Positions 6,779 through 25,316 are shown, numbered from the stretch's first letter. The stretch: DNA of 45,246 nt from an uncultured Candidatus Saccharibacteria bacterium (GCA_964539035.1 CAZIHK010000010.1:1-45246); one strand, 5' to 3'. The notes: generated from the letters alone by a model not told the origin. Made by a program: numbers and translations.

Positions 6779-7530
6779 TATTTAGATTCCTCTTTCTCTT
6801 CTTTTTCGCTAATATCCTTAAACATAAGTATGCTAATGTAAGCTATTTCTGGTTCGTCTATTCTGTAAATATCACCGAGCAATGGATTGTCATGTAATTC
6901 TTTGGCATCTACTCTACGGCCAAGCAAAAGCTCTATTGCCTCCAAATGGCTACCTAGGCTATCCCATAACTTCAAAAATACTGGTTCTATATCCGAAAGT
7001 CTTGCATCTGTCTCAAGCCCATGAATTTTACGTGTTACGGCACCATATTCATCTACGACTGGGCACTTTTTGCTAAATTCATTATTTAGTTTTGGGGTCT
7101 CAGTTATGCCTATAGCCTCATCCCTATTGGATAAATTGCTAGTAATATTGTCGGTATTGATATGCTCTAATCCTACAAATCCCAGGTGCCTAAAAATTGC
7201 AGTTTTTTTGGTTTGACCATCTTCACCCTGTTCTTCAATAACTTCGCGTCTAGAAAAAGCATAAACTGGAGCTAGACCCGATTGAGTTAGTTCATACTCC
7301 AGGGGTCTCATAAAATACGGGGCACCACCTATCATTGCCAATTCGCAATTCGACCTAAGTGCAATATCGGCTAATTGCCGTGCCCTAGCGACCATCTCGT
7401 ATATATTTGGTATTTCCTCAAAGGTCAGTAGGGCTTGTATATGGTGCTTGTCTTCTTCGCTTGGCTCAATTACACCTTGAGATATTTGCTCGGCGTTAGC
7501 CTGGTGTTGGGTTAAGTTAAAAATATTCAT
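6778..7530 (-). CDS. Hypothetical protein (250 aa), N-terminal alpha/beta-like domain
   Basis: AAGGAG SD before the ATG. Motifs ELAMIGGAPYFM...YAFSRRE...FRHLGF. No family named. Confidence 0.65.
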   Translation of the reverse strand: MNIFNLTQHQANAEQISQGVIEPSEEDKHHIQALLTFEEIPNIYEMVARARQLADIALRSNCELAMIGGAPYFMRPLEYELTQSGLAPVYAFSRREVIEEQGEDGQTKKTAIFRHLGFVGLEHINTDNITSNLSNRDEAIGITETPKLNNEFSKKCPVVDEYGAVTRKIHGLETDARLSDIEPVFLKLWDSLGSHLEAIELLLGRRVDAKELHDNPLLGDIYRIDEPEIAYISILMFKDISEKEEKEESK

Positions 7531-7557
7531 CTAGTGTCTCTCCTTAGTTATTTTATA

Positions 7558-7625
7558 TTGGGCTTGTTAAAGCTTCATAGGGCAGGTAAGCGTTGCCTAA
7601 CCTATGGAACCTTTAAGTGGTTCCG
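7558..7625. repeat. Conserved imperfect-palindrome element, copy a
   Basis: 68 nt, near-identical in its arms to 9081..9148. Stems CATAGG/CCTATG, GGCA/TGCC and GGAACC/GGTTCC are conserved while the internal loop differs. Confidence 0.6.
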
Positions 7626-7635
7626 GAGTTTTTGA

Positions 7636-7688
7636 TCAATAATCTGTGCTAATGGTCGTTTTCATTATTTAGATTCCTCTTCCTCTTG
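7636..7688 (-). pseudogene. Relic of a duplicated family-C gene start plus the preceding gene end
   Basis: 7648..7688 matches 6761..6801 at 38 of 41 nt. The relic reads ...EEEESK* then ATG (7665) MKTTISTDY* (stop 7638..7636), versus intact MKTTISEKE... at 6778. Confidence 0.5.
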
Positions 7689-7788
7689 TTACTTACCAAA
7701 AACCTTAAATATACAAAGATCGACACAGGCAAATTCAGCTTGATCGACTAGCCACAAACTACCCAATAATTCAGATTTTACTTGCATA

Positions 7789-8514
7789 TTATTCAACAAC
7801 CCCTAGGACTTTTTGCAGTGTTGATTGTCTCTTGCATTCTTCTTCGATTTTGGCCTGATCTTCAAGGGCTTTTTGCTGATCAATTGTTGTCCTGCGTAGC
7901 TGCTCTTCTGCATCCTCTTTGGCCAATCTTTTTTTACGTTTCGCTAAACATTCTTCTTCGTACTCCGACAATCCAGAACGGAATGCTTCAGCGTCTTCAA
8001 TACTTAACTCATTAAAGTTGTAGCTATATTCATTTAATTGATATGTGGAATCTTTATCCCCACTCCTTTTATTGCTGATTGATGCTGGATGCACTTTGCC
8101 TTCCCAGCTTAAAGTAATTTCTGGAGTAATTGGTAACTCTATTGAGCAATGAGCTACAGAGTTGTATCCCTCAATGTGATTGAACCCATAGGGTATCCTT
8201 ATTGTATAAAATCGCCCGGATTCTCTTGCTATTAAGGAAATTGTTTGTACTAACCTATCGATGCTCGCATAGCGTTTTTTTTCGTTTTCGATCTCTATCT
8301 CTTCTAATCGGGTTCTTTCGCTGCACAGATAATTGTCTGCAGCTTTTTCTCCTTGCGCAATTTTACGAGCTGAAGCGCCAAGAATGCCAAAAAGGCGAGT
8401 TGACTCACGATATGGTTTTTCAATATAAGCAGCACCGTAAGCAAGTTCTGCATCGTGAACTGGTTGAGCAAACATATTTATCGGCCTTCTTGTTTGTTTA
8501 TTCTTTTTATACAT
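7789..8514 (-). CDS. Hypothetical protein (241 aa) with charged helical C-terminus
   Basis: TAGGAG SD before the ATG. The C-terminal ~70 aa are E/K/R-rich (coiled-coil-like). No family recognised. Confidence 0.6.
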   Translation of the reverse strand: MYKKNKQTRRPINMFAQPVHDAELAYGAAYIEKPYRESTRLFGILGASARKIAQGEKAADNYLCSERTRLEEIEIENEKKRYASIDRLVQTISLIARESGRFYTIRIPYGFNHIEGYNSVAHCSIELPITPEITLSWEGKVHPASISNKRSGDKDSTYQLNEYSYNFNELSIEDAEAFRSGLSEYEEECLAKRKKRLAKEDAEEQLRRTTIDQQKALEDQAKIEEECKRQSTLQKVLGVVE

Positions 8515-8517
8515 AGT

Positions 8518-9057
8518 TTATCTCCTAAATTTACTTAGATGTTGGAACACGACTGCTGTTTGGGCGGAGTCGTATAACGGATTATGAGTACCTCCAGCAT
8601 AATCTTCTGGGCTAACAGTAATCCCGTATTTTTTGGCGTAGCTGTCTACCGAAGTAGGATCTTCGTTTATTTGTAGCAAGCTTGCCGATAAATCAATAAG
8701 AGGATAGGGGCCATCAAAGTCACCGATATAACCTCTGTCATGCATGTCTTTGATAAGCCCAGACTCTACCGGTGTGGCCATGTGTGCGATAACCAATGAT
8801 CCTAAATTCTTGGCCTTTTCGATGTAATAGTCAGAAAAATCTTTCAATAAGGCATCGTAAGTGCCATGTGATATGTCAATCGACTCCATCTGAGGTAATA
8901 CATTTTGTGCAACCCACTCGTTAACTTCTTCTTCAATTGGGCATCGACCAATAAATCTATCGGTCTCGTCGCAGCCTTCGTAATATATTGCGGCAACCGC
9001 AAATGGTTGGCCCCAAAGACCGTTAGTCTCTGCGTCAAAGCTAAATATTTTTGTCAT
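8518..9057 (-). CDS. DEDDh-type (DnaQ/RNase T-like) 3'-5' exonuclease
   Basis: Exo I FSFDAETNGL (DxE), an internal acidic motif, and Exo III GTHNPLYDSAQTA (Hx4D). AAGGA SD. Stand-alone 179-aa domain. Confidence 0.7.
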   Translation of the reverse strand: MTKIFSFDAETNGLWGQPFAVAAIYYEGCDETDRFIGRCPIEEEVNEWVAQNVLPQMESIDISHGTYDALLKDFSDYYIEKAKNLGSLVIAHMATPVESGLIKDMHDRGYIGDFDGPYPLIDLSASLLQINEDPTSVDSYAKKYGITVSPEDYAGGTHNPLYDSAQTAVVFQHLSKFRR

Positions 9058-12038: not shown

Positions 12039-12563
12039 TTATTCCAAATAATCTAATACTTCTGCAATCAGTTTTATGGTTTTGGCATTATGGTCATTTT
12101 CGAACCATTTGTAAGAATAATCTCTTTCTATTAATAGGGCATCAACCTCGATATCTTGGGCCGGTTTGTAGTCCCACTTGTACATATCGCCGACCATTAA
12201 GGCATCGCTCTTTTTAAAACCGTGTGATGCAAGCAGCTCAATTATTCTTTCACTCTTGCCTTCGGGGTATTCTGGTGCAAATTGGATTTCATCCAATACG
12301 TCATCTAGGCCCATGCTGAGCACCATTTGCTTGCGGTTTACCAATGCCTCTTTGGGTGGTAATGGGCTGGTAGATAGCAAAACTCTTTTTATACCTAATT
12401 TGCCTATAGCCTCAAGCGTTTCATGCGCTATAGGTACGGCCTGCATCTCTGTAAAAGGGTCAGCTTCTTCGTCGGCATAGATATGCCAAGGCTCGGCGTA
12501 ATTTTTGTGTTTTGGCGGCTCCCAAAGAGTACCATCGCCATCAAAAAATATTATCTTTTTCAT
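12039..12563 (-). CDS. HAD-superfamily phosphatase
   Basis: Motif I IIFFDGDGTLW (DxDxT), motif II LLSTS, motif IV MVGDMYKWD. AAGGA SD. Confidence 0.7.
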   Translation of the reverse strand: MKKIIFFDGDGTLWEPPKHKNYAEPWHIYADEEADPFTEMQAVPIAHETLEAIGKLGIKRVLLSTSPLPPKEALVNRKQMVLSMGLDDVLDEIQFAPEYPEGKSERIIELLASHGFKKSDALMVGDMYKWDYKPAQDIEVDALLIERDYSYKWFENDHNAKTIKLIAEVLDYLE

Positions 12564-12591
12564 GTATTTATCCTTTTATAAGTAGGTTATA

Positions 12592-13695
12592 TTAGTTTTT
12601 TGCAAGTGCAGATTTATGCGCAGTAATGTACAAATCGCGACGGGCAGGGATACCAAGTTTTTTGTCTTCTTGGTCAGAGGCAAAATGTGGATCGTGCATG
12701 GTATCTATCATATTGCTGTTATCGTACTGGTCTTCTGTTATGCCGAGTCTTTGCATACTTAGATTAATACTATCCTCTACTACACCTCTAAAATCGGCCG
12801 TAAAATGATCTGTTGGTTCAAATGAGTCGCCAGGCTTCCAGTATGGATTGTCTAGATTTTCTACATAACCATCTTGGGCCCAACCAGGTAGTACTTGTTG
12901 CATTTTTTCGCTATCTGTAAAGCTGAATAAAAAATCCTGTTTTTCTATAGCGGATCGTAAAGTTAAACTCATAGTACTTATGTCTACATCACCATAATGT
13001 TCAATGGCTTTGCGTAAGGCATATTCTACGTAAGGCAAGCCATCTTGGCTATCTGGGCATGCAGTGGTGCCATATTGATTTGGCCTAGTAAGATGCATAA
13101 AGCCGATTATTGTTCGGCCATCTTGTGTTTTAAATTCGATATTTAAATCCCCGCAGTCAGCTAAACGGCAGGCTAGCACTGGGCAATCTTCTGCGTCAGA
13201 AAAAAAGGCGTTACAGCCATTTACTTGACGCCAACCTTCTGGGTTTGTAGAAGCACTGCCATTAGCTACATACATATCAAATTCGTCAGAAAAACCGACA
13301 TTATTGCCTGTCACGGCAACAATCATGGTTTGTTCTGGCTGAATGCCTAAGCAAGTAAGTGCATCTAAGGTGTTTTTTTCCGGGCAAAGGTTACCTTTTT
13401 CACGGTTTTGGCTAACGGTTAGATCTCTGCTAGCACATTCACCCAAGCAATAAGTGGTTGCCATTTTGACAGCCTCGGTAGGTGTTAAACCTTCGGTAAT
13501 GTATCGCGATTTAATTTCTTCGAAAGATGGGCAAGTTCTTGTCAGCGTACTACCGACAACATCAACCATGCTGATGGCAGATATAGTTTCGTCACCGACG
13601 GGGTATGTTACTAAGCCGGGCACTTCTATTACATCTCTGGGTTGTTCGTTGTTTGTGTTTTTCATTTTGTTATTTTCTTGGTTAAAGTTACGCAT
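12592..13695 (-). CDS. Hypothetical protein with divergent YfiH/LACC1 (DUF152, Cu-oxidase_4)-like core
   Basis: Trimmed to the ATG at 13695 (AAGGAG SD). CRLADCGDLNIEF...IIGFMHLTRPN resembles tADCxPv...aaHAGWRG, and the C-terminal HFASDQ...ARRDLYI resembles fFSyRRd..tGR. The first conserved His is not evident. Confidence 0.4.
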   Translation of the reverse strand: MRNFNQENNKMKNTNNEQPRDVIEVPGLVTYPVGDETISAISMVDVVGSTLTRTCPSFEEIKSRYITEGLTPTEAVKMATTYCLGECASRDLTVSQNREKGNLCPEKNTLDALTCLGIQPEQTMIVAVTGNNVGFSDEFDMYVANGSASTNPEGWRQVNGCNAFFSDAEDCPVLACRLADCGDLNIEFKTQDGRTIIGFMHLTRPNQYGTTACPDSQDGLPYVEYALRKAIEHYGDVDISTMSLTLRSAIEKQDFLFSFTDSEKMQQVLPGWAQDGYVENLDNPYWKPGDSFEPTDHFTADFRGVVEDSINLSMQRLGITEDQYDNSNMIDTMHDPHFASDQEDKKLGIPARRDLYITAHKSALAKN

Positions 13696-13733
13696 ATAAT
13701 AACTCCTTATGGTAAAAATGTCAATGTTGTTAC

Positions 13734-14465
13734 CTAAATTGATCTTATATAGTTTACGCAATCTGGGCAAAATCCAGCATCCATTTTGCGATGGTGTCGT
13801 AATTCGCTTGAAAGGCCAACAGCTTCTTCTGTGCTAATGGATTGGTGCATAGTACAAAAATTTGCACAGTGTCCTGCATAAATAGGCAAAAATTCACCTC
13901 GTGGGTCAGGGTTGGCTATTGTAGCTTGGTCCAAACCAACCATATGCCCGTACTCGTGTCTCGCGATATGTCTGGTTACATCACATTTTTGCTGTTCTGT
14001 AAGATTGTCTGACATGATGTATTCGTACAGAGACTGTACAGTTGTATTATCTAAATTTGCGCCCAACACGAAGTTATTTAAACCACCTTCGCCATCTGAT
14101 ATGGTCATACCTCTGGCTGTTAAAATAAAGTTATGGAAGTAGCCTTGTGGACCAGTTGAGGTCTGTATTAAGTGATACAAATTATCGAACAAAAGCTGAC
14201 CCTCTTGGACATTTGGGTTAGGATTGTAGATTGTAGAATCATCTAGCAGTTGTTCTAGTGTTGCATCGGTACCAACTATTTGGTCGTAATCGACATTAAC
14301 TTTTGGCATACGGCTCATCATTTGGACTACGTCATCTATGCCAAACATAGCTGCTTGGTATAGGTGAGGGTAGTAAAGTTCTAATTGACTATCAATAATC
14401 AATCTCATTTCTGGCACTTGTGGCTCTTGCTCGTAGTTTTGTGGGTATTTTGGCTCTTTATACAT
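13734..14465 (-). CDS. Zinc metallopeptidase, archaemetzincin (M54)-like
   Basis: ARHEYGHMVGL (HExxHxxG), then GHCANFCTM and CPDC, reminiscent of the archaemetzincin HExxHxxGx3Cx4CxM...CxxC signature with altered spacing. Confidence 0.55.
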   Translation of the reverse strand: MYKEPKYPQNYEQEPQVPEMRLIIDSQLELYYPHLYQAAMFGIDDVVQMMSRMPKVNVDYDQIVGTDATLEQLLDDSTIYNPNPNVQEGQLLFDNLYHLIQTSTGPQGYFHNFILTARGMTISDGEGGLNNFVLGANLDNTTVQSLYEYIMSDNLTEQQKCDVTRHIARHEYGHMVGLDQATIANPDPRGEFLPIYAGHCANFCTMHQSISTEEAVGLSSELRHHRKMDAGFCPDCVNYIRSI

Positions 14466-14467
14466 GC

Positions 14468-14950
14468 TTAATCAGCAATTCTTGATTTTAGATATTCTCT
14501 AATCTGTTCTGTGGTAAGATTTATTGCGCCATCTAATCTTGCCAGACCATTAATTTGATGGCTTACACCAATACCGGTGTCTAGATTGAAAGTCGCCACG
14601 CTTTCAAGCTCACCTTCTGGGGTATCTTTGATCTCCAAGTTAGCTACCTGTTCATTGCTTTCCGTATCTTCATATATAGACAGACACCCTACTGAAGTTT
14701 CACCTCGAAAAAAGGCATGGACTATAGGGCGGTCAAAATCATGCCAACTATGTGGTGTTATGTATAACTCTTCGCTCGTAGTTTTATCCTCTAGTTCAAT
14801 CGAAAAAGATTGAGAACTGTCCACTGAATTTATTAATTTCTCACTTTTTGACTTAATCAATGACAGCAATGTTTGGTAGCTATTATTGATTTTTTCTTCA
14901 TTCGAGACAGTCTTTTTTTCTGCTTTAAATGTATTTCCTAAATTTTCCAT
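14468..14950 (-). CDS. Hypothetical protein (160 aa)
   Basis: ORF tightly packed in operon 2 (2-nt gap to the next gene). No family recognised. Confidence 0.6.
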   Translation of the reverse strand: MENLGNTFKAEKKTVSNEEKINNSYQTLLSLIKSKSEKLINSVDSSQSFSIELEDKTTSEELYITPHSWHDFDRPIVHAFFRGETSVGCLSIYEDTESNEQVANLEIKDTPEGELESVATFNLDTGIGVSHQINGLARLDGAINLTTEQIREYLKSRIAD

Positions 14951-14969
14951 ATTGTTCTCCTTTATATAA

Positions 14970-15455
14970 TTAATTTCTTTTAGCTTGCAGTGAGCTACTT
15001 GCGTAAACTCCGTGAGTTTCTTCGTATTCTCTGGTGAGTATTACATCACCTAATAGTTCAATTTCTTCTATTCTGATAACAGGGAAGTCAACTTCCTCGT
15101 AGCTTGGCTCTCGGACGATTTTTGATGAGCGGCCAACTAAGTCTTCTAGAGCTTGCATTTCGTGGTCAGCAAGAATTGATTCTTGTGGCAGATATACCTG
15201 AGCTGTTTCTGGTATGTGGTCTATTAATCGTTCGGGTAAATCATTTGGAATGGCTATTTGTTCTTGAAGTTTTTGAGCTTGTGCAAAGATGTAGGCTATT
15301 TTAGTACAAAATATTTCGTACATATTGCGGCTAGCAAAGTTTCTCGCATAAAATGTAGACTCAATGCCATTGTCTAATGACTTAAGTTCGTTTTCTAATA
15401 GGGCAAGAATATGCATATCACCATGTTCTGTGCCTTCCTCGTAAGTCGTTTTCAC
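14970..15455 (-). CDS. Hypothetical protein (161 aa), first gene of operon 2
   Basis: GTG start at 15455 with ACGGAG SD. No family recognised. Confidence 0.6.
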   Translation of the reverse strand: MKTTYEEGTEHGDMHILALLENELKSLDNGIESTFYARNFASRNMYEIFCTKIAYIFAQAQKLQEQIAIPNDLPERLIDHIPETAQVYLPQESILADHEMQALEDLVGRSSKIVREPSYEEVDFPVIRIEEIELLGDVILTREYEETHGVYASSSLQAKRN

Positions 15456-15481
15456 TATGTAACTCCGTTTATTACAAAACT

Positions 15482-15510
15482 AATATAGCATATTGTCAAT
15501 TATATGTCAA
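15482..15510 (-). promoter_or_regulatory. Putative promoter for operon 2 (minus strand)
   Basis: Minus-strand TTGACA (rc 15505..15510), 17 nt, TATATT (rc 15482..15487). A second TGTCAAT heptamer lies at 15494..15500. Confidence 0.45.
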
Positions 15511-15563
15511 TACATAATTAACAATAATATTAAACAGTTATAATAATAATTGTAAAAGTAAGA

Positions 15564-15592
15564 TTAACAAATACGATTATATCTGTTAATAT
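15564..15592 (+). promoter_or_regulatory. Putative promoter of TrmB paralog 2
   Basis: TTAACA 15564..15569, 17 nt, TAATAT 15587..15592. The ATG follows 6 nt later. Confidence 0.4.
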
Positions 15593-15598
15593 GCTCAT

Positions 15599-16378
15599 AT
15601 GACTACAGACCAGCTAGTAGAAGTCGGCCTAACTCTGTCGCAGGCAAAAGCTTACCTTGCACTTTTAAAACATGGTGCTATGACCCCCACGGTATTAGCA
15701 GGTTTAATCGACGAAAGTAGAACAAATACCTATGCAGTGCTGGACAGATTGGTGGGTCTTAAGCTAGCAGAGCAAGTAAAAGGAACCAAAAAAGTTTATA
15801 AAGCCGCTAATCCAACGCATCTAGAAGAATATGTTAGACATCAAAAAGAAGTAGCCGAAGAAAAACAAGAAAAAGCTCGCCGACTAATGCCGGGTTTAAT
15901 GGATATGTATTTTAAAACGGATGCAGAGCCAGGAATTAGGTTTTTTAGGGGTAGGGAAGAATTGAAAAAGATTTTTATGGAGCAGTTAGAAACGCGGCAG
16001 ACGATTTACTTAATAAGATCTTCGGCCGACATCAAATACTACGATTTTGATTTTGTTAGCAATATAAGGTTGGCGGCTGCAAAATATGGCATCCAGCGCT
16101 ATGGGATATGCCCAGACATTAAAGAGACAAATCCAACAAGGCAAGACGACAAAAGAAGCAATTTAGATAGAACCTGGGTAGATAAAGACGATTATAATGC
16201 CGAGGTAGAGTGGACTATATTTGGCGATAAAGTATCGGCAATATCGTTTGGCAAAGAAGGGGTGGGGATGATTATTGAGAGCCCACAAATTGCCGAAAGC
16301 ATGCGCCAACTTTTTAATTTAGCCAAGGCCGGGGCAAAGGCTCGTTACCCTAAACCAAAATGGGGATATAAAAGCTAG
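15599..16378 (+). CDS. TrmB-family wHTH transcriptional regulator, paralog 2
   Basis: GLTLSQAKAYLALLKHGAMTPTVLAGLIDESRTNTYAVLDRLVGLKLAE. Confidence 0.75.
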   Translation: MTTDQLVEVGLTLSQAKAYLALLKHGAMTPTVLAGLIDESRTNTYAVLDRLVGLKLAEQVKGTKKVYKAANPTHLEEYVRHQKEVAEEKQEKARRLMPGLMDMYFKTDAEPGIRFFRGREELKKIFMEQLETRQTIYLIRSSADIKYYDFDFVSNIRLAAAKYGIQRYGICPDIKETNPTRQDDKRSNLDRTWVDKDDYNAEVEWTIFGDKVSAISFGKEGVGMIIESPQIAESMRQLFNLAKAGAKARYPKPKWGYKS

Positions 16379-16386
16379 AACTATAG

Positions 16387-17292
16387 CTAAAGAGCTTTGA
16401 ACAAAAGCTCTGTTTTAGTAATTATCGGTTTATTTAACCATTCTATACCAATATCAAAGTCTTTTTGATAGCTTTTGTCGTAAAGTTCAGTGATCTCTTT
16501 TTTCAAATTCACTAAATTACGGTCTCTCGCTTGCCACTTACTGTTCTCGAATATTTTATATCCCTTAGAGGCAAAAACATCCAATTGCAGATTTCGTAGT
16601 TTTGAAATAACAATAGATTCTATTGTCGTAACAATAAGTTGATGGCTTAAGACTTCTAAATCATCTATAGTTTTATCATTTTGCTGTAATTTTAGAATTC
16701 TTGCCAATTCTTGAGAATAACTATCAATGCTGATTCTTTCTAGTCTCTTAGTCTTTTCGCTTAAATCCTCGACGAATTCTAACAACTCTTTAGTTGGCTC
16801 AATCACTAGCTCTATCTGTTCTGCAGAGATTATAAGTTTATCTCGCTGGTCTTTGGCTAAATTGGCTAACTCATCCTTTTGAGCCCCCAATTTGTAAAAA
16901 GCAAGTTGTTTGCGCCCTGCAACATATTTTAGCGGGAAGCCAGTAATCTCGTCGCCACTGATAATAGCGTCAGTATACAAACCATAATCGACTCGGTAAT
17001 CTAAGGGCTTTTTTATTATAAAAATTTTACCTACCTCTTCTTTGTTTCGTGATGTTTCGCTTTCGCTAAAATGTTTATTTTCGCCCATAGCCCACCTTAA
17101 TGAATGGGCTAAGTCTGTAGAAATAGTGGCTCTACCTTCTCGAGCCGTAAAACCTGCATCTTTTATGTTTTCGGCGTTTGCTAAAGAGGCTGTACCATGT
17201 AGGAAATACTTAACACTGGCTAGAGATTCATCCCCATCGGATGAAATCAATCGTTCGTCATAAAGTATTTCGTGATTTTTAGATTGCTCCAT
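16387..17292 (-). CDS. Hypothetical protein (301 aa); N-terminal domain with HGT motif (possible ART-fold), helical C-terminus
   Basis: YFLHGTASLANAENIKDAGFTAREGRATISTDLAHSLRWA resembles the hHGT....I...GF...R..v.lS motif of Tpt1/KptA- and PARP-type NAD-binding folds. By-eye only. Confidence 0.3.
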   Translation of the reverse strand: MEQSKNHEILYDERLISSDGDESLASVKYFLHGTASLANAENIKDAGFTAREGRATISTDLAHSLRWAMGENKHFSESETSRNKEEVGKIFIIKKPLDYRVDYGLYTDAIISGDEITGFPLKYVAGRKQLAFYKLGAQKDELANLAKDQRDKLIISAEQIELVIEPTKELLEFVEDLSEKTKRLERISIDSYSQELARILKLQQNDKTIDDLEVLSHQLIVTTIESIVISKLRNLQLDVFASKGYKIFENSKWQARDRNLVNLKKEITELYDKSYQKDFDIGIEWLNKPIITKTELLFKAL

Positions 17293-17342
17293 ACAAGTTA
17301 GCTCTTACGATATTTAACAGTTTAATTTAATATTTTATTTAT

Positions 17343-17585
17343 CTAAATTATCTTGATTTTTTGTATAGCCAAAGTAGATAGCAAAAGCGTACTTGGCAGG
17401 ATCAAAGCGCTAAACCAAGGTTTGCTGGCATTTAGCCAGGCAAGAAATAGTCCTGCAAACAGATAGGTAATCACAAAAATTATTGATTTTCGGGTTTTAC
17501 TAAGCTCCCATGCCTTATCGGCAGTAACTTTTTTGTTGCGCAATTCTATTTTTGCTATGCGCTTTTCGAGCTCAATATTATTCAT
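17343..17585 (-). CDS. Small membrane protein (80 aa): N-terminal helix plus two TM segments
   Basis: ELEKRIAKIELRNKKVTADKAWE followed by two hydrophobic stretches. Confidence 0.55.
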   Translation of the reverse strand: MNNIELEKRIAKIELRNKKVTADKAWELSKTRKSIIFVITYLFAGLFLAWLNASKPWFSALILPSTLLLSTLAIQKIKII

Positions 17586-17603
17586 ACTATAATGTTTTGT
17601 CTG

Positions 17604-18320
17604 TTAACTGTTATTAAAAAAATTGGAATAGTCTGATTCAATATCAATTTCTTGTAATTTTAGATTAGATGTTTTAACCCCAAAAACATCATCATAAGAG
17701 TTGTCATAACAACCATCCAATAAATTATCCATACTAAATAAGTAGCAAGATAATTTTTTGCAAATTTCATATTGTTTTTGTTCGTAATCTATACTAGAAT
17801 CGTTTTTTTCATCAATGATTGGTGGTCCCATTGTGAAATCAGAAAAATCATTGTAAGCAGAAAAATCATGGTAAGCTATAAACATATTAGCTATATCTGG
17901 GTCGCAAAAACCTACGGGCTGGCTAAGCTGGCTAAAAAAGACTGGCCCACCAAAGACTGTTGATATCATTAAATCAAATGGGGTTCTGGTTTCTTGTGGA
18001 GCTAGAATTATGTCCTGATTGGTGGCCATATTAGTGTTTGGCGAAACTAAACACACATTAGCTTCACAATATTCTTCATCAGCAAACGTTACCAAAGCTA
18101 ACTGCTTTAAGATGTTTCGTTTGTCCACCGAGCAATTTTTACAATCGGGGTGTACGTCAACATAGCAAATATCTCCAAAAATAGGAGGATGCAAAAGGGG
18201 CGAAGGATTTAAATCTAGCGACTGCCAACTGTCATTGGCGGGAGTAAACAAACCATCTTGCTTAACCCATCTATAGCCGTCTAGCTCCCATTTCTCATTT
18301 GCGTTAAATTGTTCTTTCAT
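17604..18320 (-). CDS. Hypothetical protein, island family A copy 1 (238 aa)
   Basis: Shares WELDGYRW..QdG.F.PA...WQSLDL.P, GD.CY...HPDC, AN..LVS, IIL.P.ETR.PFD, VFF.QLS.PVGF with 18329..19000 and 19734..20564. Confidence 0.65.
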   Translation of the reverse strand: MKEQFNANEKWELDGYRWVKQDGLFTPANDSWQSLDLNPSPLLHPPIFGDICYVDVHPDCKNCSVDKRNILKQLALVTFADEEYCEANVCLVSPNTNMATNQDIILAPQETRTPFDLMISTVFGGPVFFSQLSQPVGFCDPDIANMFIAYHDFSAYNDFSDFTMGPPIIDEKNDSSIDYEQKQYEICKKLSCYLFSMDNLLDGCYDNSYDDVFGVKTSNLKLQEIDIESDYSNFFNNS

Positions 18321-18328
18321 AAAAGAGG

Positions 18329-19000
18329 CTATATTCCATTATCATCGTTAAATATTTGTTTGCTAACACAATAACAACTTAGTTTACTTACAATATCGCA
18401 ATGCTTTGATATTAGTTCTTGTCGCGAGTCCTTATGGTCTAGAATAGGGTTGCTTCTTTTTTCTTTAGGAAAGTCAGGTGCAAATCCTAGAGTACTTAGG
18501 GCCAATTTATCAATATTTTCTTGATCAATATATCCGACTGGCATACTTAGTTGATTATAATAAACTGTTCCACAACTTATCAGTTCGATTGCAATATCAA
18601 AAGGAATTCTTGCATCTTTTGAGTCTAGAATTACATCTCGGGAAACAGCCATATCTGTTTGATTAGTGGCTAGCATGAAGTTTGCCAAACCTTCTTCTTC
18701 ATAAACCATAAGAACACAACCAAGTTGTTTTTCGCTGACTTGGCACTTACTTAATAAGCAATCTGGGTGTTGGCTCAGATAGCAAAAATCACCCGGCCAG
18801 GGGACTTCTGTAATTGATACTGGCGATAAATCCAAGGGTTGCCATTCTTTGTCGGCTGGTACAAAAATACCGTTTTGGCGCATCCAGCGGTAGCCGTCTT
18901 CTGGCTCCCATCTCTCTATTAATTCATGATTATTATTTTTCGCTACATCATCGTTGTTTATATTGTAATTTTCCAAATTATTAGCATTATATTTTTCCAT
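18329..19000 (-). CDS. Hypothetical protein, island family A copy 2 (223 aa)
   Basis: Family A motifs as above. AAGGA SD. Confidence 0.65.
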   Translation of the reverse strand: MEKYNANNLENYNINNDDVAKNNNHELIERWEPEDGYRWMRQNGIFVPADKEWQPLDLSPVSITEVPWPGDFCYLSQHPDCLLSKCQVSEKQLGCVLMVYEEEGLANFMLATNQTDMAVSRDVILDSKDARIPFDIAIELISCGTVYYNQLSMPVGYIDQENIDKLALSTLGFAPDFPKEKRSNPILDHKDSRQELISKHCDIVSKLSCYCVSKQIFNDDNGI

Positions 19001-19014
19001 GGCTAAGTCCTTAA

Positions 19015-19722
19015 TTATTTAGCAGAATCGTTTTCATTTTCGATAATGATTTTGGGGTGTGGTAAATCCCAACCAGTGTGGCCTGTCCAATCCATATCGA
19101 TTCGATGAGAGTGCGTGTTTTTAGGTTCTATAAGTGTATTTATCCATGATACTTTTTCACATAAATCATGTGCGCAATCATGGCAAATAATAGCTGTACA
19201 TTGATCTAGCCTGCCTTTTTTAACCCAATCGCTGGTATCTAATCTGTCTTCTTCGAATAACCATTCTTGTGGAAACGGATCGACGAACATGCTATAACCA
19301 CCAGCCATGTTAACTATCAAAGCGTTATTGTACTGTACGCTACCTTTTTTAAACTGATTGGGAAATACAGGCTCTAGCTCTTTTTGACAAACAAAACATT
19401 GGTGAATATTTTCGTTTATCAATTCCGGGTTTTCTTGGTGGTGTTCATGTTCACAACCACAATAACTACCAGTAATGGCGTCAATTCTTTTTTCATCAAG
19501 TTCTTCGCGATAGGCGTTACTTTGTTCGTTGTAGATTCCTACCACAGTACTCCAAAACAATTCATTTTCTTTCGTGTCTTCCATCAACGTATCGCTATTC
19601 CACATTTCTTCGGCGGCATCGTAATCAGGGGCTAAATCACCGTCAATAATACATTTTAGCCAAAAAGCTTCACTCTCGGCTTCTATATAGTCATATCTTT
19701 GACTGTCTTTAAATTGTTCCAT
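19015..19722 (-). CDS. Hypothetical Cys/His-rich protein, island family B copy 1 (235 aa)
   Basis: Paralog of 20579..21289. Motifs: PDY..A.EMW.SD, HQCFVCQKELEPVFP, QYNNALI..GGY.MF.DP, AIICHDCAHDLC. AAGGAG SD. Confidence 0.65.
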   Translation of the reverse strand: MEQFKDSQRYDYIEAESEAFWLKCIIDGDLAPDYDAAEEMWNSDTLMEDTKENELFWSTVVGIYNEQSNAYREELDEKRIDAITGSYCGCEHEHHQENPELINENIHQCFVCQKELEPVFPNQFKKGSVQYNNALIVNMAGGYSMFVDPFPQEWLFEEDRLDTSDWVKKGRLDQCTAIICHDCAHDLCEKVSWINTLIEPKNTHSHRIDMDWTGHTGWDLPHPKIIIENENDSAK

Positions 19723-19733
19723 CTCTTATCTCC

Positions 19734-20564
19734 TTATTCTATTATCGATTTATTATCAATTTCGTTGTCGGCATCAAACAAAGTTCTGTTTAAACAGTAG
19801 CAGTATAACTTTTTCATTACATCCATTCGATGCAGTATTCTATCCCGTCGTGGATCTTCGTGGTCTATTATGGGTTCACCTCTTTTTTCTTTCGGAAAAT
19901 CAAGCTCACCACCCATGTAAGTGCTCTCATTTATTTTGTCGATAATATCTTGATTGGTATATCCTACTGGTTTACTCAGTTGATCAAAAAATACAGGGCC
20001 GCAAACTTGTTCAATCATCACATCAAAAGGTATTCTGGTTTCGTCGGGGCTAAGGATAACATCATCCGGACCCGCCATATCAAGTTTTCTTGACACAAGC
20101 ATAACATTTGCAAACTCTCCTTCCTCATCAACTAGATGTAAATAGGCAAGTTGCTTTTCATCGGTATGGCAATCTGGCATTTTACAACCCGGGTGCTGGG
20201 AAAGGTAACAAAAATCACCAGGCCAAGGGGTTTCCGTGGGTGAAAGAGGTGATAAATCTAATGATTGCCAATACTCATCGGCCGGTACAAACCTGCCATT
20301 TTGAAGCACCCACTTATAACCGTCATCTGCTTGCCATTTGTCTAGCGAATCAAGTTCTACTGTTTTTTTTGGTTTAAGCCTAAAGTTGGGCAACATATCC
20401 TCGGGTTTTTCTAGCAATTGCTCAGCTCTCTCTAGCATACCCAAATATTGATGCGCATCCTTGTAACCTTCGGCTTCGCCAGTTGCGATGAAACCTTTCA
20501 ATCTATCAGATTCTGTTTGAGCTTCATCCAAACTGTATCTTTGAATATCGTTATTATTTTCCAT
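19734..20564 (-). CDS. Hypothetical protein, island family A copy 3 with extra N-terminal module (276 aa)
   Basis: Family A core plus an N-terminal ~45 aa (QRYSLDEAQTESDRLKGFIATGEAEGYKDAH) shared with family B and the 117-aa ORF. AAGGAG SD. Confidence 0.65.
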   Translation of the reverse strand: MENNNDIQRYSLDEAQTESDRLKGFIATGEAEGYKDAHQYLGMLERAEQLLEKPEDMLPNFRLKPKKTVELDSLDKWQADDGYKWVLQNGRFVPADEYWQSLDLSPLSPTETPWPGDFCYLSQHPGCKMPDCHTDEKQLAYLHLVDEEGEFANVMLVSRKLDMAGPDDVILSPDETRIPFDVMIEQVCGPVFFDQLSKPVGYTNQDIIDKINESTYMGGELDFPKEKRGEPIIDHEDPRRDRILHRMDVMKKLYCYCLNRTLFDADNEIDNKSIIE

Positions 20565-20578
20565 AATTTTCTCCTTAA

Positions 20579-21289
20579 TTATTCTTCTGGAGAACCATCA
20601 AAAATTTCATATTCACCGTCAATCTCATCATTGTTCGATAGACCACAACCCTTATGTTCATCCAAATTATTTTCGTATCCAAAAGTATCCGAATAATCAG
20701 GGTTTATGAATCTGTCCATCCATGGTATTTGTTTGCAAAGATCATGCGCACAGTCCTGGCATATGATTGCCGAATACTCGTTTTCTATCAAGCCATTATT
20801 TAAGATTTCCTTGGGTTCCATATCTTCTATCAATATTGGATCAATATACATGCCATAACCTCCATCGATGTCGATTATTAAAGCATTTTCGTATTGTGTG
20901 CACTTTTTATTGAAATGAAAAACATCAGGAAACACAGGTATGAGCTCTGTGTGGCAAGCAAAACAATGGTGATAACTTTCATGCAGTTTATCACGATGTT
21001 CCTTAAGCCAATTAGCCTGATACTCATTTATATATTTATCACGTAGGTCAATGACTGTTCTCCAAAAAAATGCATTTTGATCGGTATCTTCTAGTAGTCG
21101 ATCACTGCCCCACATTTCATCAGCTGATTCGTAGTCAGGTGAAAAACCACTGTCAACCATACTCCTTAGCAATACTGCTTCATCTTCGGCTTGCTCTTTG
21201 CCAAGTCTGGCCGGATACTTATTTTCTTTCTGAGGGCTTTTAATATTGTTAATATCGTTATCCCAATTGTCTTCATAATTCTTTTTCAT
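20579..21289 (-). CDS. Hypothetical Cys/His-rich protein, island family B copy 2 (236 aa)
   Basis: HHCFACHTELIPVFP, QYENALI..GGYGMY.DP, AIICQDCAHDLC. AAGGAG SD. Confidence 0.65.
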   Translation of the reverse strand: MKKNYEDNWDNDINNIKSPQKENKYPARLGKEQAEDEAVLLRSMVDSGFSPDYESADEMWGSDRLLEDTDQNAFFWRTVIDLRDKYINEYQANWLKEHRDKLHESYHHCFACHTELIPVFPDVFHFNKKCTQYENALIIDIDGGYGMYIDPILIEDMEPKEILNNGLIENEYSAIICQDCAHDLCKQIPWMDRFINPDYSDTFGYENNLDEHKGCGLSNNDEIDGEYEIFDGSPEE

Positions 21290-21342
21290 CTTATCGTCTC
21301 CTTGTATTTAAAAAATTTGCGATAATTAGCGCTACTGTTCTC

Positions 21343-21696
21343 TTAGCCTTCTGGGCCATAATCAATTTGGAACTCTTTTCCGATACCGTGGTGTTGAATA
21401 TCGATTTTTTCCCAAATACCAAGATCATCTTGCTCTGGTGCTGGGGTTTCTATTACGCCAGTGAAAACGTCCCAGTCGTATTCATTCCAGTTCCATTCTT
21501 TCCACATGTGCTTATCCATTTCTTGCATCACTTTTTCGAAGCAAGAAGCCCAGCCGGCATCAACGATTCTTAAAAATTTAGCATGTGCTGATTTATAATC
21601 TTCGGCATAGTTATTCTTTACACAATCTTTAATTGCTTCAGCTTCTAGCTGTGCGGCTTCTATCCCTAATCTTTGGCAATCTATATATTCTTTCAT
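21343..21696 (-). CDS. Hypothetical protein (117 aa) carrying the shared N-terminal module
   Basis: CQRLGIEAAQLEAEAIKDCVKNNYAEDYKSAH aligns with the N-termini of 19015..19722, 19734..20564 and 20579..21289. W-rich C-terminus. Confidence 0.6.
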   Translation of the reverse strand: MKEYIDCQRLGIEAAQLEAEAIKDCVKNNYAEDYKSAHAKFLRIVDAGWASCFEKVMQEMDKHMWKEWNWNEYDWDVFTGVIETPAPEQDDLGIWEKIDIQHHGIGKEFQIDYGPEG

Positions 21697-21717
21697 TTTA
21701 ATTAACCTCTCGTGGCC

Positions 21718-22542
21718 TTAATTATTATTTAAAAATCGGTGTAATTTTTGTTCGGTTTCACTGTCAACCAAATTATCTTTAATGATTATGTATTCTGCCT
21801 TAAAGCCATAGCCTCTTAAAATATCCAGTACTTCTTCTTGTGAATCCTTGTTATTTTGCAGGTCTTCTTGCAATAGCTCGAATATTTCAGACTTATTATC
21901 GTCCAACCAAAGAATTGGACTGTTTCCTATATATTGAACGAGTAGCATTGTTTTAATACTTTTGTTAAATGTTGATTCACCTATCACGCTAACGGGTTGG
22001 ACGTCGGTAAGCGGAACTTTTGAAATTTTTGTTCCATTTTCATTGTCTTCCATGCAATCTGATTCATAAATATAGTCGTCATCTAGGTCATGAAATACCT
22101 CTGCCCTAGTGAATCTAGCTGAACTATTAATTACTAAATCATTTGCTGAAGGTACAATTATAGGTAGTTGAACCATAGCGCTTCTGGCCTCGGGATCTCG
22201 TGGTGAAAATAGATAGTTAAATAAATAGCTTGGGTGAAAATGTATGTCTATCACAACATCAAAATTATCTGGATCTATGTCATTATCGTATAAGTCTGAT
22301 TGATAAATACTACCTAAAAACATTCCTTTGATATGATTGGTACCACAAGCACTAATACTTTCAGTATTTCCGCTTTTTCTATCTTTTACAACGAAAAAAC
22401 CACTCTCATTACCTTCTTCTTTGTCAGTGAAGTTTGTACAAAAATCCCAACTACGAATAAATTCTCTCGAAGTAATTATTTGCTTTAACTCCTCAGCTGT
22501 TAGTTCCTCGTTGTTGTGAGATAACATCTCATGATTTCCCAT
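21718..22542 (-). CDS. Hypothetical protein (274 aa) with possible JAB/MPN (JAMM)-like motif; first gene of operon 3
   Basis: NESGFFVV ... IDIHFHPSYLFNYLFSPRD approximates E...HxH-x(7-10)-SxxD of JAMM/RadC-type metallopeptidases (spacing is 9, not 7). AAGGA SD. Confidence 0.35.
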   Translation of the reverse strand: MGNHEMLSHNNEELTAEELKQIITSREFIRSWDFCTNFTDKEEGNESGFFVVKDRKSGNTESISACGTNHIKGMFLGSIYQSDLYDNDIDPDNFDVVIDIHFHPSYLFNYLFSPRDPEARSAMVQLPIIVPSANDLVINSSARFTRAEVFHDLDDDYIYESDCMEDNENGTKISKVPLTDVQPVSVIGESTFNKSIKTMLLVQYIGNSPILWLDDNKSEIFELLQEDLQNNKDSQEEVLDILRGYGFKAEYIIIKDNLVDSETEQKLHRFLNNN

Positions 22543-22726
22543 AATTATATCCTTAAATTATCCCTTTCGCTCTTAAATTGAGCTCATCGGTACAGCAAAG
22601 TAGCTGTAGAGGGAGGCGCAAAGCGCTTTGGGTGATAAACCCTAAGTGCTTTTACGTGCTCTTACATTTGTTGATGGCTAAAACTATTGCCCCAAAGGTA
22701 CTTGTCCAAAATTGGACACGGCCATA

Positions 22727-22755
22727 ATAATATTACATAATTGTATTAATGTCAA
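22727..22755 (-). promoter_or_regulatory. Putative promoter for operon 3 (minus strand)
   Basis: Minus-strand TTGACA (rc 22750..22755), 17 nt, TATTAT (rc 22727..22732). Confidence 0.45.
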
Positions 22756-22818
22756 TGATGAGTTATAATAAATATTAGTTAATAAATAGATATAGAATCT
22801 AATAATGACAAAACAAAT

Positions 22819-22847
22819 TTGACATATTAAGATAGATATGTAATCAT
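22819..22847 (+). promoter_or_regulatory. Putative promoter of TrmB paralog 3
   Basis: TTGACA 22819..22824, a 16-17 nt spacer, TAATCA/AATCAT. The ATG at 22855 follows 7 nt later. Confidence 0.4.
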
Positions 22848-22854
22848 TAAATCT

Positions 22855-23601
22855 ATGATAAAAGAAGCTTTATTAGAACAAGCAGGTCTTAACCAGAGCG
22901 AAGTAAAGGTATATAAACGACTGCTAGAATATGGCGAGCTTGCCCCACCTAGATTATCTGAACTAACAGGCCTGGCACGCCAAAACACCTATGCAGCACT
23001 AAAAACATTAACAAAAAAAGAGCTGATTGAGGTCGTATCACGCAGGAAAAAGCTTGCCTATCAGGTGCAACATCCCAATAAACTGGTCGAACTGGTCGAT
23101 AAACAGATAGATGAGTCTAAAATGGTCCAAAAATCCCTAAAAGCCAACATGCCAGAATTAATAAGTTTATTTAGTTTGGCTAGCAGCAAGCCCGGCATTA
23201 TTTATTTTGATGGGCTGGAAAGTATTAAAAATATATATTTAGATGGCTTAAGGTCTAAACCAGAAGAAGTATTGGTATTTAGGTCTACGCACGACGATGA
23301 TAAACTCGGGGTTTTTTTGACAAGTTTTAAGAAGCGCAGAGCTCTTAACGGCACAAAAACTAAAATGATTTCGCAAACGATACCCACCAAAGAGAAAATA
23401 GAAGAAGATAAACAACTACTCATACAACGAAAGTACGTACCTGACGATATTTTTCACCTAGATACTGAAATTGCAATTGCAGATAATCAAGTTTCTTTTA
23501 TAACTTTCGATAAGCAAATTAAAGGGTTTGTTATAACAAGTAAAGAGGTGGCACAGACTCTGCGAACAATTTTTGAGAGTCTCTGGGTAGCTGAATTTTA
23601 A
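22855..23601 (+). CDS. TrmB-family wHTH transcriptional regulator, paralog 3
   Basis: GLNQSEVKVYKRLLEYGELAPPRLSELTGLARQNTYAALKTLTKKELIE. Confidence 0.75.
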   Translation: MIKEALLEQAGLNQSEVKVYKRLLEYGELAPPRLSELTGLARQNTYAALKTLTKKELIEVVSRRKKLAYQVQHPNKLVELVDKQIDESKMVQKSLKANMPELISLFSLASSKPGIIYFDGLESIKNIYLDGLRSKPEEVLVFRSTHDDDKLGVFLTSFKKRRALNGTKTKMISQTIPTKEKIEEDKQLLIQRKYVPDDIFHLDTEIAIADNQVSFITFDKQIKGFVITSKEVAQTLRTIFESLWVAEF

Positions 23602-23608
23602 TAATATT

Positions 23609-23649
23609 AAAAACCCTCTGCAAATTTTGTAAAAATGCAGAGGGTTTTT
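23609..23649. terminator. Bidirectional intrinsic terminator
   Basis: AAAAACCCTCTGCA-N13-TGCAGAGGGTTTTT, a perfect 14-bp stem flanked by A and T runs, between convergent genes ending at 23601 (+) and 23690 (-). Confidence 0.75.
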
Positions 23650-23689
23650 ATTGCTTAATTGTCAGTTAAGCCAAAGCCACAAGTATGGC

Positions 23690-24214
23690 TTAGACTTCTA
23701 AGCTTACTTCTTGGCTAACAACCCATCTTGCAAGGTTAGCATAGATACCTGCATATACATTTGATTCATGCTCACCTTCTGCGAACTGAATCCTCCAGGT
23801 ACCGTCACTATTCTTTGTGGCTCTTATGGTTGCACCACTAGTGGCACTTTGCCATTCGAAAGATTCAGCATCATCAGGACTAAACTCGGCATAGGTAGAA
23901 ATACCATGGCCAATATGACGTGTTGGCTCACCAACCCAATCTCTTCCACCCATAGAATGAGTTGCAATATATACTCTGTCTGGCGATGCTATCTGATCTG
24001 GGTTTGTTATACCGTAATCTCTGGCTCTTTCTTCTTGTAGCGGCAAAGAATTGCATAAGCTATGAGATATCGTTACAACGTTTTGCCAATTTACGTCCAA
24101 TCCGTCTGGATGCATTTGTTGAGCGAATAAAAATGGTGATTCATATTCCTCACTTTCGTCACGGTATTCACCCAACCCTTCGGCGATTACAGTTTGTTTA
24201 TCTAAGTAATTCAT
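23690..24214 (-). CDS. Hypothetical protein, island family C copy 2 (174 aa)
   Basis: Paralog of 6251..6778 (motifs listed there). AAGGAG SD. Monocistronic, between the terminator and the divergent promoter region. Confidence 0.65.
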   Translation of the reverse strand: MNYLDKQTVIAEGLGEYRDESEEYESPFLFAQQMHPDGLDVNWQNVVTISHSLCNSLPLQEERARDYGITNPDQIASPDRVYIATHSMGGRDWVGEPTRHIGHGISTYAEFSPDDAESFEWQSATSGATIRATKNSDGTWRIQFAEGEHESNVYAGIYANLARWVVSQEVSLEV

Positions 24215-24537: not shown

Positions 24538-24559
24538 TTATATTAATATAACATATAAT
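24531..24559 (+). promoter_or_regulatory. Putative promoter of TrmB paralog 4
   Basis: TTGACA 24531..24536, 17 nt, TATAAT 24554..24559. The ATG at 24567 follows 7 nt later. Confidence 0.55.
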
Positions 24560-24566
24560 GTGTGAG

Positions 24567-25316
24567 ATGGATTATATAGAAATACTAAAAAAACTCGGCC
24601 TCAATGAATCTCAAGCAAAAGCCTATTTAGCGCTAGTAGGTAACGATAACTTGACCCCGCCAGACTTAGCAGTAGAGATAGGAGAAAAAAGAACAGCTAC
24701 ATATATGATATTGGCTCGATTAGAAGAGCTGGGTTTGGCAAGTAAAGCAGAGGGTAGTAGAGCAAGATATATCGCCGAAAGCCCGACAAAATTAAAAGAA
24801 ATACTTGTAGCAAAACAGTCTGAGCATCAACAGCTCCAGCGTTCCTTGATATCGATCATGCCAGCACTAAATGCAGAATATAACATTGCATATCAAAAAC
24901 CCGGGGTTGTGTACATGGAGGGGATCCAGGGCTTGAAGTATGTTTATAACGAAATAATTGATAATGGAGAGGATATAATGTTATTACCAAGCCAAGACGT
25001 ATTTGATAATAGCGAATTAGTGAAACTTATCGAAGGCAATGTAGAAAAACAAAGAAAAAGGGGTATCAATACAAGAACCATATATCCCAAAACCGATAAA
25101 GCCTATCTGGAGGCAAAAAAGCATACAGACGCCAATGTATCTGTTAGGTACTTCGGTAACTCGTCAATGCAGACGGCACAGATAATCCTATACGCCAATA
25201 CGGTTGCAATCACCACATTCCAGCCTGGGATATTTAATACAGTTATTACAAATCCATTATTAGCGAACACATTTAAGGGCTATTTTGAAGATATGTGGGC
25301 AGCAGGCGAATGCTAA
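24567..25316 (+). CDS. TrmB-family wHTH transcriptional regulator, paralog 4
   Basis: The track ORF starts at 24558, but that ATG overlaps the consensus -10 box. MDYIEILKKLGLNESQAKAYLALVGNDNLTPPDLAVEIGEKRTATYMILARLEELGLAS aligns with the other paralogs starting from the ATG at 24567. Confidence 0.75.
   Translation: MDYIEILKKLGLNESQAKAYLALVGNDNLTPPDLAVEIGEKRTATYMILARLEELGLASKAEGSRARYIAESPTKLKEILVAKQSEHQQLQRSLISIMPALNAEYNIAYQKPGVVYMEGIQGLKYVYNEIIDNGEDIMLLPSQDVFDNSELVKLIEGNVEKQRKRGINTRTIYPKTDKAYLEAKKHTDANVSVRYFGNSSMQTAQIILYANTVAITTFQPGIFNTVITNPLLANTFKGYFEDMWAAGEC

Follow-up and report, generated by a model that had tools for sequence, protein, structure and literature searches.

The stretch analysed here is a contig of 45,246 nt from the metagenome-assembled genome (MAG) of an uncultured Candidatus Saccharibacteria bacterium (GCA_964539035.1, CAZIHK010000010.1:1-45246; hereafter the window), in which a preliminary description had proposed a tandem array of two unnamed gene families, A and B, with family A resembling toxins of the MazF/PemK/CcdB type. 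The array lies exactly where it had been placed (17604–21289) and consists of five consecutive open reading frames (ORFs), all on the minus strand, in the order B2 (20579–21289, 236 amino acids (aa)), A3 (19734–20564, 276 aa), B1 (19015–19722, 235 aa), A2 (18329–19000, 223 aa) and A1 (17604–18320, 238 aa). The gaps between them, described as 8–14 nt, measure 14 nt (B2-A3), 11 nt (A3-B1), 14 nt (B1-A2) and 8 nt (A2-A1), and a Shine-Dalgarno (SD) site, AAGGAG or AAGGA, precedes B2, A3, B1 and A2 and is missing 5' of A1, which agrees with the four sites out of five described. By a six-frame scan with hidden Markov models (HMMs), the window contains three copies of A and two of B, and no more; the NCBI locus tags of the A and B genes are WCP03_00150–00165. 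The motifs quoted for both families were all present in the alignments.

Similarity within each family was far above chance (HMM E-values of 1e-80 to 1e-129; 6e-101 for A1). A2 and A3 are 42–48% identical to A1 (MAFFT) and 53% identical to each other (BLASTP), and B1 and B2 are 39% (MAFFT) or 35% (BLASTP) identical. Every paralogue has a closer orthologue in other genomes, at 70–91% identity, so the paralogues are old; these orthologues, together with the 35–53% identity among paralogues, rule out that a B-A unit was recently duplicated in tandem.

Among 5.8 billion proteins, a word-indexed search found no more than 12 members of family A, none of them annotated, and scans of GTDB and JGI added very few loci. 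A1–A3 matched no Pfam, NCBIfam, PADLOC or PHROG model, including PF02452 (MazF/PemK), even among hits with E ≤ 1. A profile of the 12 sequences found nothing among PDB sequences at E ≤ 10, and its direct comparison with a small MazF alignment by hhalign was at chance level (1.6%). The AlphaFold2 model of A3 had a mean predicted local distance difference test score (pLDDT) of 64, and its core (approximately residues 70–215) reached 70–89 and was predicted to be β-rich with a C-terminal helix. In the Foldseek comparison of this model with the PDB, all of the top 50 matches were MazF proteins (E 2.5e-5 to 1.5e-3, 40 of them at E ≤ 1e-3), among them M. tuberculosis MazF-mt1 and MazF-mt3, B. subtilis YdcE/MazF, B. 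anthracis MoxT and the proteins of S. aureus and E. coli, with a probability of 1.0, template modelling (TM) scores of 0.58–0.73 normalised to MazF, and about 105–120 aligned columns. An exhaustive HMMER search of 1.84 billion representatives extended the family to 197 relatives at E ≤ 1e-3, many of them about 330 aa long with the A match at residues ~45–170. A profile built from 117 of the 197 matched M. tuberculosis MazF6 (E 0.005) and MazF9 (E ~0.05) in the PDB, and eight of its nine PDB matches were MazF6 or MazF9 (E 0.005–0.18). With hhalign, this wider profile aligned with MazF at a probability of 71% (E 3.7e-5), and a profile anchored on A3 did so at 73%, pairing A3 residues 113–215 with residues 7–106 of E. 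coli MazF. The sequence link between A and MazF is transitive only, running through the model and the wider family. On the basis of the Foldseek matches and this transitive link, we regard the assignment of family A to a highly divergent predicted barrel of the MazF/PemK/CcdB type as well supported, and the likeness suggested earlier holds at the level of the fold. The five motif equivalences on which it had been founded fared unevenly: the GD strand, the P[FY] strand and the glycine followed by a helix were retained in the profile alignments, whereas the other two were off register, LVS of family A falling on β3 and not on the MazF strand RPAVVLS, and DQLS being unaligned with ADQVKS. The A cassettes represent a known fold and a known type of system in a new and very divergent form, and are neither categorically new nor an annotated member of PF02452.

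The MazF-like core is predicted at 19917–20228 in A3 (residues 113–216), 18488–18802 in A2 (approximately residues 67–171) and 17865–18185 in A1 (approximately residues 46–152), all on the minus strand. Family A and MazF/PemK/Kid (PF02452; MazF6/MazF9, YdcE) share the predicted barrel with its C-terminal helix, the order of strands (GD strand, β2, β3, the strand containing P[FY], then glycine and helix) and a partner gene upstream. In contrast to MazF, which has about 110 residues, the A proteins have 223–276, with an extra β-meander (W..DGY[RK]W..Q.G.F.PA; residues 76–95 of A3) ahead of the barrel and, after it, a region with a conserved G.P..G..DPR[WY] motif, common to the wider family, together with a helix and a CYC motif. 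They further differ from MazF in having no Pfam match, a glutamine for the catalytic arginine, and a conserved Cys/His insert in the β1-β2 loop, GD[FI]CY...H..C....C (C119, H124, C127 and C132 in A3), which contains four cysteines in the A subtype of loci L020 and L024. The core has an isoelectric point (pI) of 4.2 and a net charge of −9 to −13 over 108 residues, compared with a pI of 8.5 for E. coli MazF and 10.6 for Kid. No tblastn matches were obtained for A, and a phage or plasmid origin of the family has no support.

Homologues of B (n = 22) were found in Saccharibacteria or Patescibacteria where they were close; distant ones (130–250 aa, on contigs of 44–66% GC) have only the C-terminal domain in common with B. 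The AlphaFold2 model of B (pLDDT 73) shows a confidently predicted N-terminal helical domain followed by a Cys/His domain, which correspond to 19405–19722 and 19123–19404 in B1 and to 20972–21289 and 20699–20971 in B2, all on the minus strand. Six potential ligands (C109, C112, C180, C183, H185 and C188) are invariant across 23 B sequences, and this conserved set of CxxC type fits metal binding, so that the Cys/His domain is probably zinc-binding, as had been proposed. Also conserved are the motifs GGYGMF.D and SHAH...DWTGHTGWDLPH, the latter following the Cys/His domain of B1 as SH[AS]H...DWTGHTGWDLPH; the C-terminal His-rich motif of B1 is missing from B2. Comparison of the B model with PDB folds gave nothing below E 2, PDB sequences gave only weak matches to human papillomavirus (HPV) E6 zinc domains (E 0.08), and neither these searches nor the family scans recognised a DNA-binding or antitoxin domain. 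In BFVD, the model matched a protein from Gordonia phage Kenna that has not been characterised (E 8.7e-4), and tblastn and HMM searches identified the B domain with all its ligands in Kenna gp90 and in gp96 of Gordonia phage Lutum. Kenna gp90 (L025, 2950–3306) is a stand-alone hypothetical protein of 118 aa encoded among small right-arm phage genes. One of the distant B homologues lies on a phage-like contig (L014) and others in chromosomal contexts; the domain is thus present in actinophages as well as in other bacteria.

The two families are linked by a feature overlooked in the preliminary description, an N-terminal helical module of about 50 aa common to A3 (approximately residues 5–60), B1, B2 and an upstream ORF at 21343–21696. 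The N-termini of A3-type proteins and of all Saccharibacteria B proteins are homologous (hhalign 91.7%, E 7.6e-7, 33% identity over 52 columns), so that the two families are only partly independent of each other. Without either partner domain, the module is encoded by small genes of L006 and L023 and by the 117-aa ORF that precedes B2; in L023 the stand-alone gene lies directly upstream of an A gene that has no module. The N-module and the MazF-like core thus occur both fused, as in A3, and split, as in L023, and in B the module is fused to the Zn domain. A1, A2 and several A homologues do not contain it.

The array is part of a run of nine co-directional genes extending from 22542 down to 16387 on the minus strand. 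The first gene encodes an acidic protein of 274 aa (21718–22542), and the second the 117-aa acidic protein (21343–21696), which joins the N-module (HMM E 4.7e-5; BLASTP matches to A3 and B2) to a different C-terminal part. After B2, A3, B1, A2 and A1 follow a basic protein of 80 aa (17343–17585), which reads as an N-terminal helix with two hydrophobic segments and is hence a putative membrane protein, and a protein of 301 aa (16387–17292). The best promoter match for the run, by consensus only, is a σ70-like TTGACA-17-TATTAT (11/12) at 22727–22755 on the minus strand, and a TrmB-family regulator (22855–23601, plus strand; Pfam TrmB E 3.8e-11) is divergent from the run and forms a conserved left border of the locus. 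Scans of the nine proteins against Pfam, NCBIfam, PADLOC and PHROG found nothing meaningful, PADLOC had no match to any protein of the window, and the 80-aa and 301-aa proteins had neither a family nor a PDB match. On both sides the locus is flanked by ordinary chromosomal genes (arginyl-tRNA synthetase (ArgRS), DnaG, a σ70 factor, DNA polymerase I (Pol I) and an ABC transporter).

Comparison with related genomes revealed that the locus has fixed borders and a variable interior. The syntenic flank in several of them comprises ArgRS, DUF1361, a flavodoxin-like protein and TrmB, followed by the variable part and then by the 80-aa and 301-aa proteins. Wherever a related locus reaches that far, the 80-aa protein lies directly 3' of the cassettes (56–75% identity, L001–L007 and L021–L023), and the 301-aa protein comes next where the contig continues, being conserved downstream of it in L002–L005. 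The variable part contains a protein of a family named X and then A only in L002/L003, L022 and L001; X, an N-module protein and A in L023; X and then B only in L004/L005; three small genes and then B only in L006/L007; X, B and A in L008 (identical to L020), L009 and L010; and, in L021, a B protein 91% identical to B1 followed by an A1-type protein (P0012) 71% identical to A1. The adjacency of B and then A, found twice in the window, thus recurs in L008/L020 and L021; given the loci with A or B alone, it is recurrent and non-obligatory, and B is not an obligatory partner of A. The expectation that A and B would be genomically linked elsewhere was partly borne out for related Saccharibacteria and not beyond this clade, since among the distant homologues no A-like gene adjoined B and no B-like gene adjoined A.

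The X proteins, encoded ahead of A and/or B in most related loci (L001, 3460–4626; L002, 7111–7998; L004, 6820–7998; L008, 7111–7998; L022, 4817–5998), are acidic, 295–393 aa long and end in ...EW[CN] or ...GW; neither Pfam nor the PDB has a match to them. The window encodes no X protein, and the position of X is taken there by the unrelated 274-aa protein. Three related genomes (L002, 6512–7081; L006, 6134–6703; L022, 4222–4776) encode, between TrmB and the cassettes, a further conserved protein of about 189 aa whose N-terminus resembles that of a lipoprotein (a LAGC lipobox, judged by eye); this protein is missing from the window.

Three closely related loci, L008, L009 and L010, are 99.2–99.7% identical in DNA sequence and encode an identical B protein. 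A is intact in L008 (8804–9634), and its reading frame is broken by a 10-bp deletion in L009 (at ~1635) and by an 85-bp deletion in L010 (at ~933–942). The two deletions differ and B is identical; A was thus knocked out twice independently while B was kept. The C-terminus of A varied with its neighbourhood: all four A genes without an upstream B gene (L002, L022, L001 and L023) encode an acidic tail of 40–80 aa with the pattern DDLAAEA...YKIRH..NQW, and A3, A2 and the A protein of L020, each encoded directly after a B gene, have no such tail. A1, which is preceded by A2 and not by a B gene, has an acidic tail of 40 aa. P0004 with P0190, putatively from one contig, suggests a further case of this anticorrelation.

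Distant relatives of A were found in a different setting. All three contexts retrieved showed the same gene order, a protein of 317–376 aa, the MazF-like protein of about 330 aa and an ABC ATPase of 605–616 aa (L017, 4039–7942; L018, 4051–7884; L019, 3745–7592). The first protein has a C-terminal helix-turn-helix (HTH) of LuxR/FixJ type (PDB profile, E 0.005), and the ATPase carries DUF3696 and matches PADLOC NsnB at E 1e-66 to 1e-70. The neighbours place these operons within defence islands, with cyclic-oligonucleotide-based antiphage signalling (CBASS; bacHORMA, Cap17-like), bacteriophage exclusion (BREX; BrxA, BrxC/PglY) or type I restriction-modification (R-M) genes. The HTH and MazF-like proteins had no match to PADLOC models, which makes the operon a candidate for an undescribed Menshen-like defence system; it looks like one with a MazF-fold component. 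The Saccharibacteria X proteins were also considered as counterparts of the HTH proteins (termed Y) and this was ruled out (hhalign 0.3%), and no ATPase of NsnB type was present in the run of the window or in any related Saccharibacteria locus. Our search of the literature on Saccharibacteria MazF, on DUF3696 with MazF and on TrmB hypervariable loci found nothing relevant, and a further word-indexed search for homologues gave 4 proteins only. As in Menshen (NsnABC) and with reference to other ABC-ATPase systems (Septu, PARIS, Gabija), the distant relatives adjoin an NsnB-like ATPase with DUF3696, with a DNA-binding protein upstream, a protein of RNase fold in the effector position and a location in defence islands. 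However, NsnA and NsnC of Menshen proper, a ParB-DUF262 protein and a protein with inPIN and BECR domains, respectively (PMC12065111), are of types absent from these operons, and the window itself has no ATPase.

The reading that we favour, tentatively and with a probability of about 0.4, is that the array is the expanded cassette region of a Saccharibacteria-specific operon and represents a conflict-type (toxin or defence) module, in which A is an effector restrained by B or by its own tail. The operon would run from the divergent TrmB regulator through a variable gene set to the 80-aa membrane protein and the 301-aa protein. A may inhibit growth or bind a target, which could be RNA (the MazF case) or a protein (the CcdB case); it may be held inactive in trans by B, encoded just upstream, or alternatively, in genomes without B, in cis by the long acidic C-terminal tail. 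This reading draws support from the fold of A and its repeated inactivation, from the order of the genes, and from the variable content of the locus and the defence islands around the distant relatives. Also in its favour are the tails of the A proteins encoded without B, the N-module found both fused and split, and the B domain in Gordonia phages. CcdB, the gyrase poison, has the same superfold as A and is also acidic, and it binds a protein instead of cleaving RNA; by analogy, CcdB-like binding would be compatible with an A protein lacking the catalytic arginine. Unlike the MazF proteins, however, CcdB was absent from the structural top 50 and gave no sequence signal, and CcdA is unrelated to B. 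As for B, a role as antitoxin is plausible and unproven. Antitoxins of the MqsA type have a Cys-coordinated metal site and are encoded beside a toxin-fold gene, as B is, whereas B has 235 aa, a different architecture and no sequence or fold similarity to any PDB entry. Of the features of type II toxin-antitoxin (TA) systems, the array shows co-directional adjacent genes with B first and gaps of 14 nt (B2-A3 and B1-A2); inheritance of A and B as a unit is not among them. Antitoxins of this type bind and neutralise their toxin and usually autoregulate through a DNA-binding domain, of which the searches with B gave no sign.

Several observations weigh against the favoured reading. The preliminary description had read the genes as antitoxin-toxin pairs, and pairing is not obligatory: A occurs without B in four lineages (L001, L002/L003, L022 and L023), and B without A, at the same locus, in two (L004/L005 and L006/L007). 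The three different A subtypes found with B1-type proteins speak against a tight co-evolution of cognate partners, and the family scans and the PDB sequence and fold searches matched B to no known antitoxin family. MazF catalysis depends on an arginine (R29 in E. coli) and a threonine (T52). The column aligned with R29 contains arginine in 78% of the wider family and glutamine, preceded by lysine or arginine, in all 12 Saccharibacteria members of family A, and the equivalent of T52 differs between alignments (V157, S158 or L161). The acidity of the A core is unusual for an RNA-binding toxin. The A3 model, at its mean pLDDT of 64, was built on 12 sequences only. The anticorrelation between tail and B comprises about seven cases, which are not phylogenetically independent, and P0009, which has a tail, and P0020, of B2 type, putatively share one contig of 2008 bp and are a possible counter-example.

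The array gives a first functional handle on a strain-variable and otherwise unannotated locus of Saccharibacteria, which have very small genomes and whose immunity and host-interaction genes are poorly understood. The MazF/CcdB superfamily gains a branch missed by Pfam, NCBIfam, PADLOC and PHROG models, with the unusual combination of a Cys/His loop insert, an acidic surface and no catalytic arginine, and this branch is connected with the undescribed operon of three genes that includes an NsnB-like ATPase and lies in defence islands. Neutralisation of A by B or by the tail, if real, would amount to a new type of antitoxin, with control in trans and in cis as alternatives for one toxin fold.

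Another possible explanation, of nearly comparable weight and still held below an even chance, is that A and B are parallel, interchangeable cassettes, each an N-terminal adaptor with an alternative C-terminal head (the MazF fold, the Zn domain or small Cys-rich domains), which would work with a core of X, the 80-aa and the 301-aa proteins, the MazF barrel being a catalytically dead binding domain. The N-module common to A3, B1, B2, the 117-aa ORF and the stand-alone genes of L006 and L023 is consistent with this explanation, as are the filling of the slot before the 80-aa gene by A alone or by B alone, the glutamine for arginine, the acidic A core and the similarly acidic composition of all proteins of the run, and there is precedent in the inactive RNase folds (inactive PIN domains) that serve as adaptor domains in NsnC of Menshen (PMC12065111). 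However, A1, A2 and several homologues entirely lack the adaptor, and B precedes A wherever both are present. In polymorphic toxin and cassette systems, a common N-terminal module with variable C-terminal domains goes together with a secretion or trafficking domain and with immunity genes downstream. The Pfam and NCBIfam scans recognised no secretion or trafficking domain in the cassette proteins, whose N-termini, judged by reading the sequences only, have no obvious signal peptide. Moreover, with B identical and A independently disrupted, selection against A seems a better description than an equivalence of A and B.

It is unlikely, to our assessment, that A and its relatives form an unrecognised MazF/CcdB branch serving as effector of two new conflict systems, with the B-type domain a phage inhibitor captured as antitoxin. 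The first system would be a Menshen-like defence with a LuxR-type HTH sensor, a MazF-fold effector and an NsnB-like ATPase, and the second a reduced Saccharibacteria version restrained by a phage-type Zn-domain protein, B, in trans or by an acidic tail mimicking RNA or DNA in cis. The actinophage Zn domain (Kenna gp90) would then inhibit MazF-fold effectors, and the episymbiont would have captured it as an antitoxin.

We consider it improbable that the array is a canonical type II MazEF-like system in which A is an mRNA interferase, B its dedicated Zn-binding antitoxin and the whole a tandem duplicate. The MazF fold of A, the presumed antitoxin upstream with tight spacing and SD sites, and the several paralogous copies typical of TA families agree with it, but the pair is not conserved as a unit, with no B gene belonging to A1. 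A lacks the catalytic arginine, is acidic and two to three times as large as MazF, and has no PF02452 match; B, unlike the partners of MazF, is not of MazE/AbrB, ribbon-helix-helix (RHH) or other known antitoxin type. The genes also lie inside a nine-gene run and are not autonomous bicistrons. Equally doubtful is an origin of the cassettes as a remnant or reduced form of the HTH, MazF-like and NsnB-like ATPase system with an anti-phage role in the Saccharibacterium: all three distant contexts show that operon within defence islands, and the Saccharibacteria locus varies between strains in the manner of defence hot spots, but the run and the related loci contain neither ATPase nor Y-like gene, no protein of the window matches PADLOC, and family A lacks the C-terminal domain of about 150 aa of the distant relatives.

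Two minor observations concern the surroundings of the array. In the 274-aa protein, HFHPSYLFNYLFSPRD (residues ~101–116) resembles by eye the metal motif HxHPS...SxxD of JAB/MPN (RadC-like) proteins; this identity was rejected for want of HMM or Pfam support, and the PDB sequence search gave weak matches to RES toxins only (E 0.4). The array also lies within a block of acidic unannotated genes at 12039–24214, with a second such block at 6251–9057, whose proteins have a pI of 4.1–4.8 and −5 to −13 charges per 100 aa. Three TrmB-family regulators (15599–16378, 22855–23601 and 24558–25316) are interleaved with the acidic block, and the housekeeping proteins of the same window have ordinary pI values.

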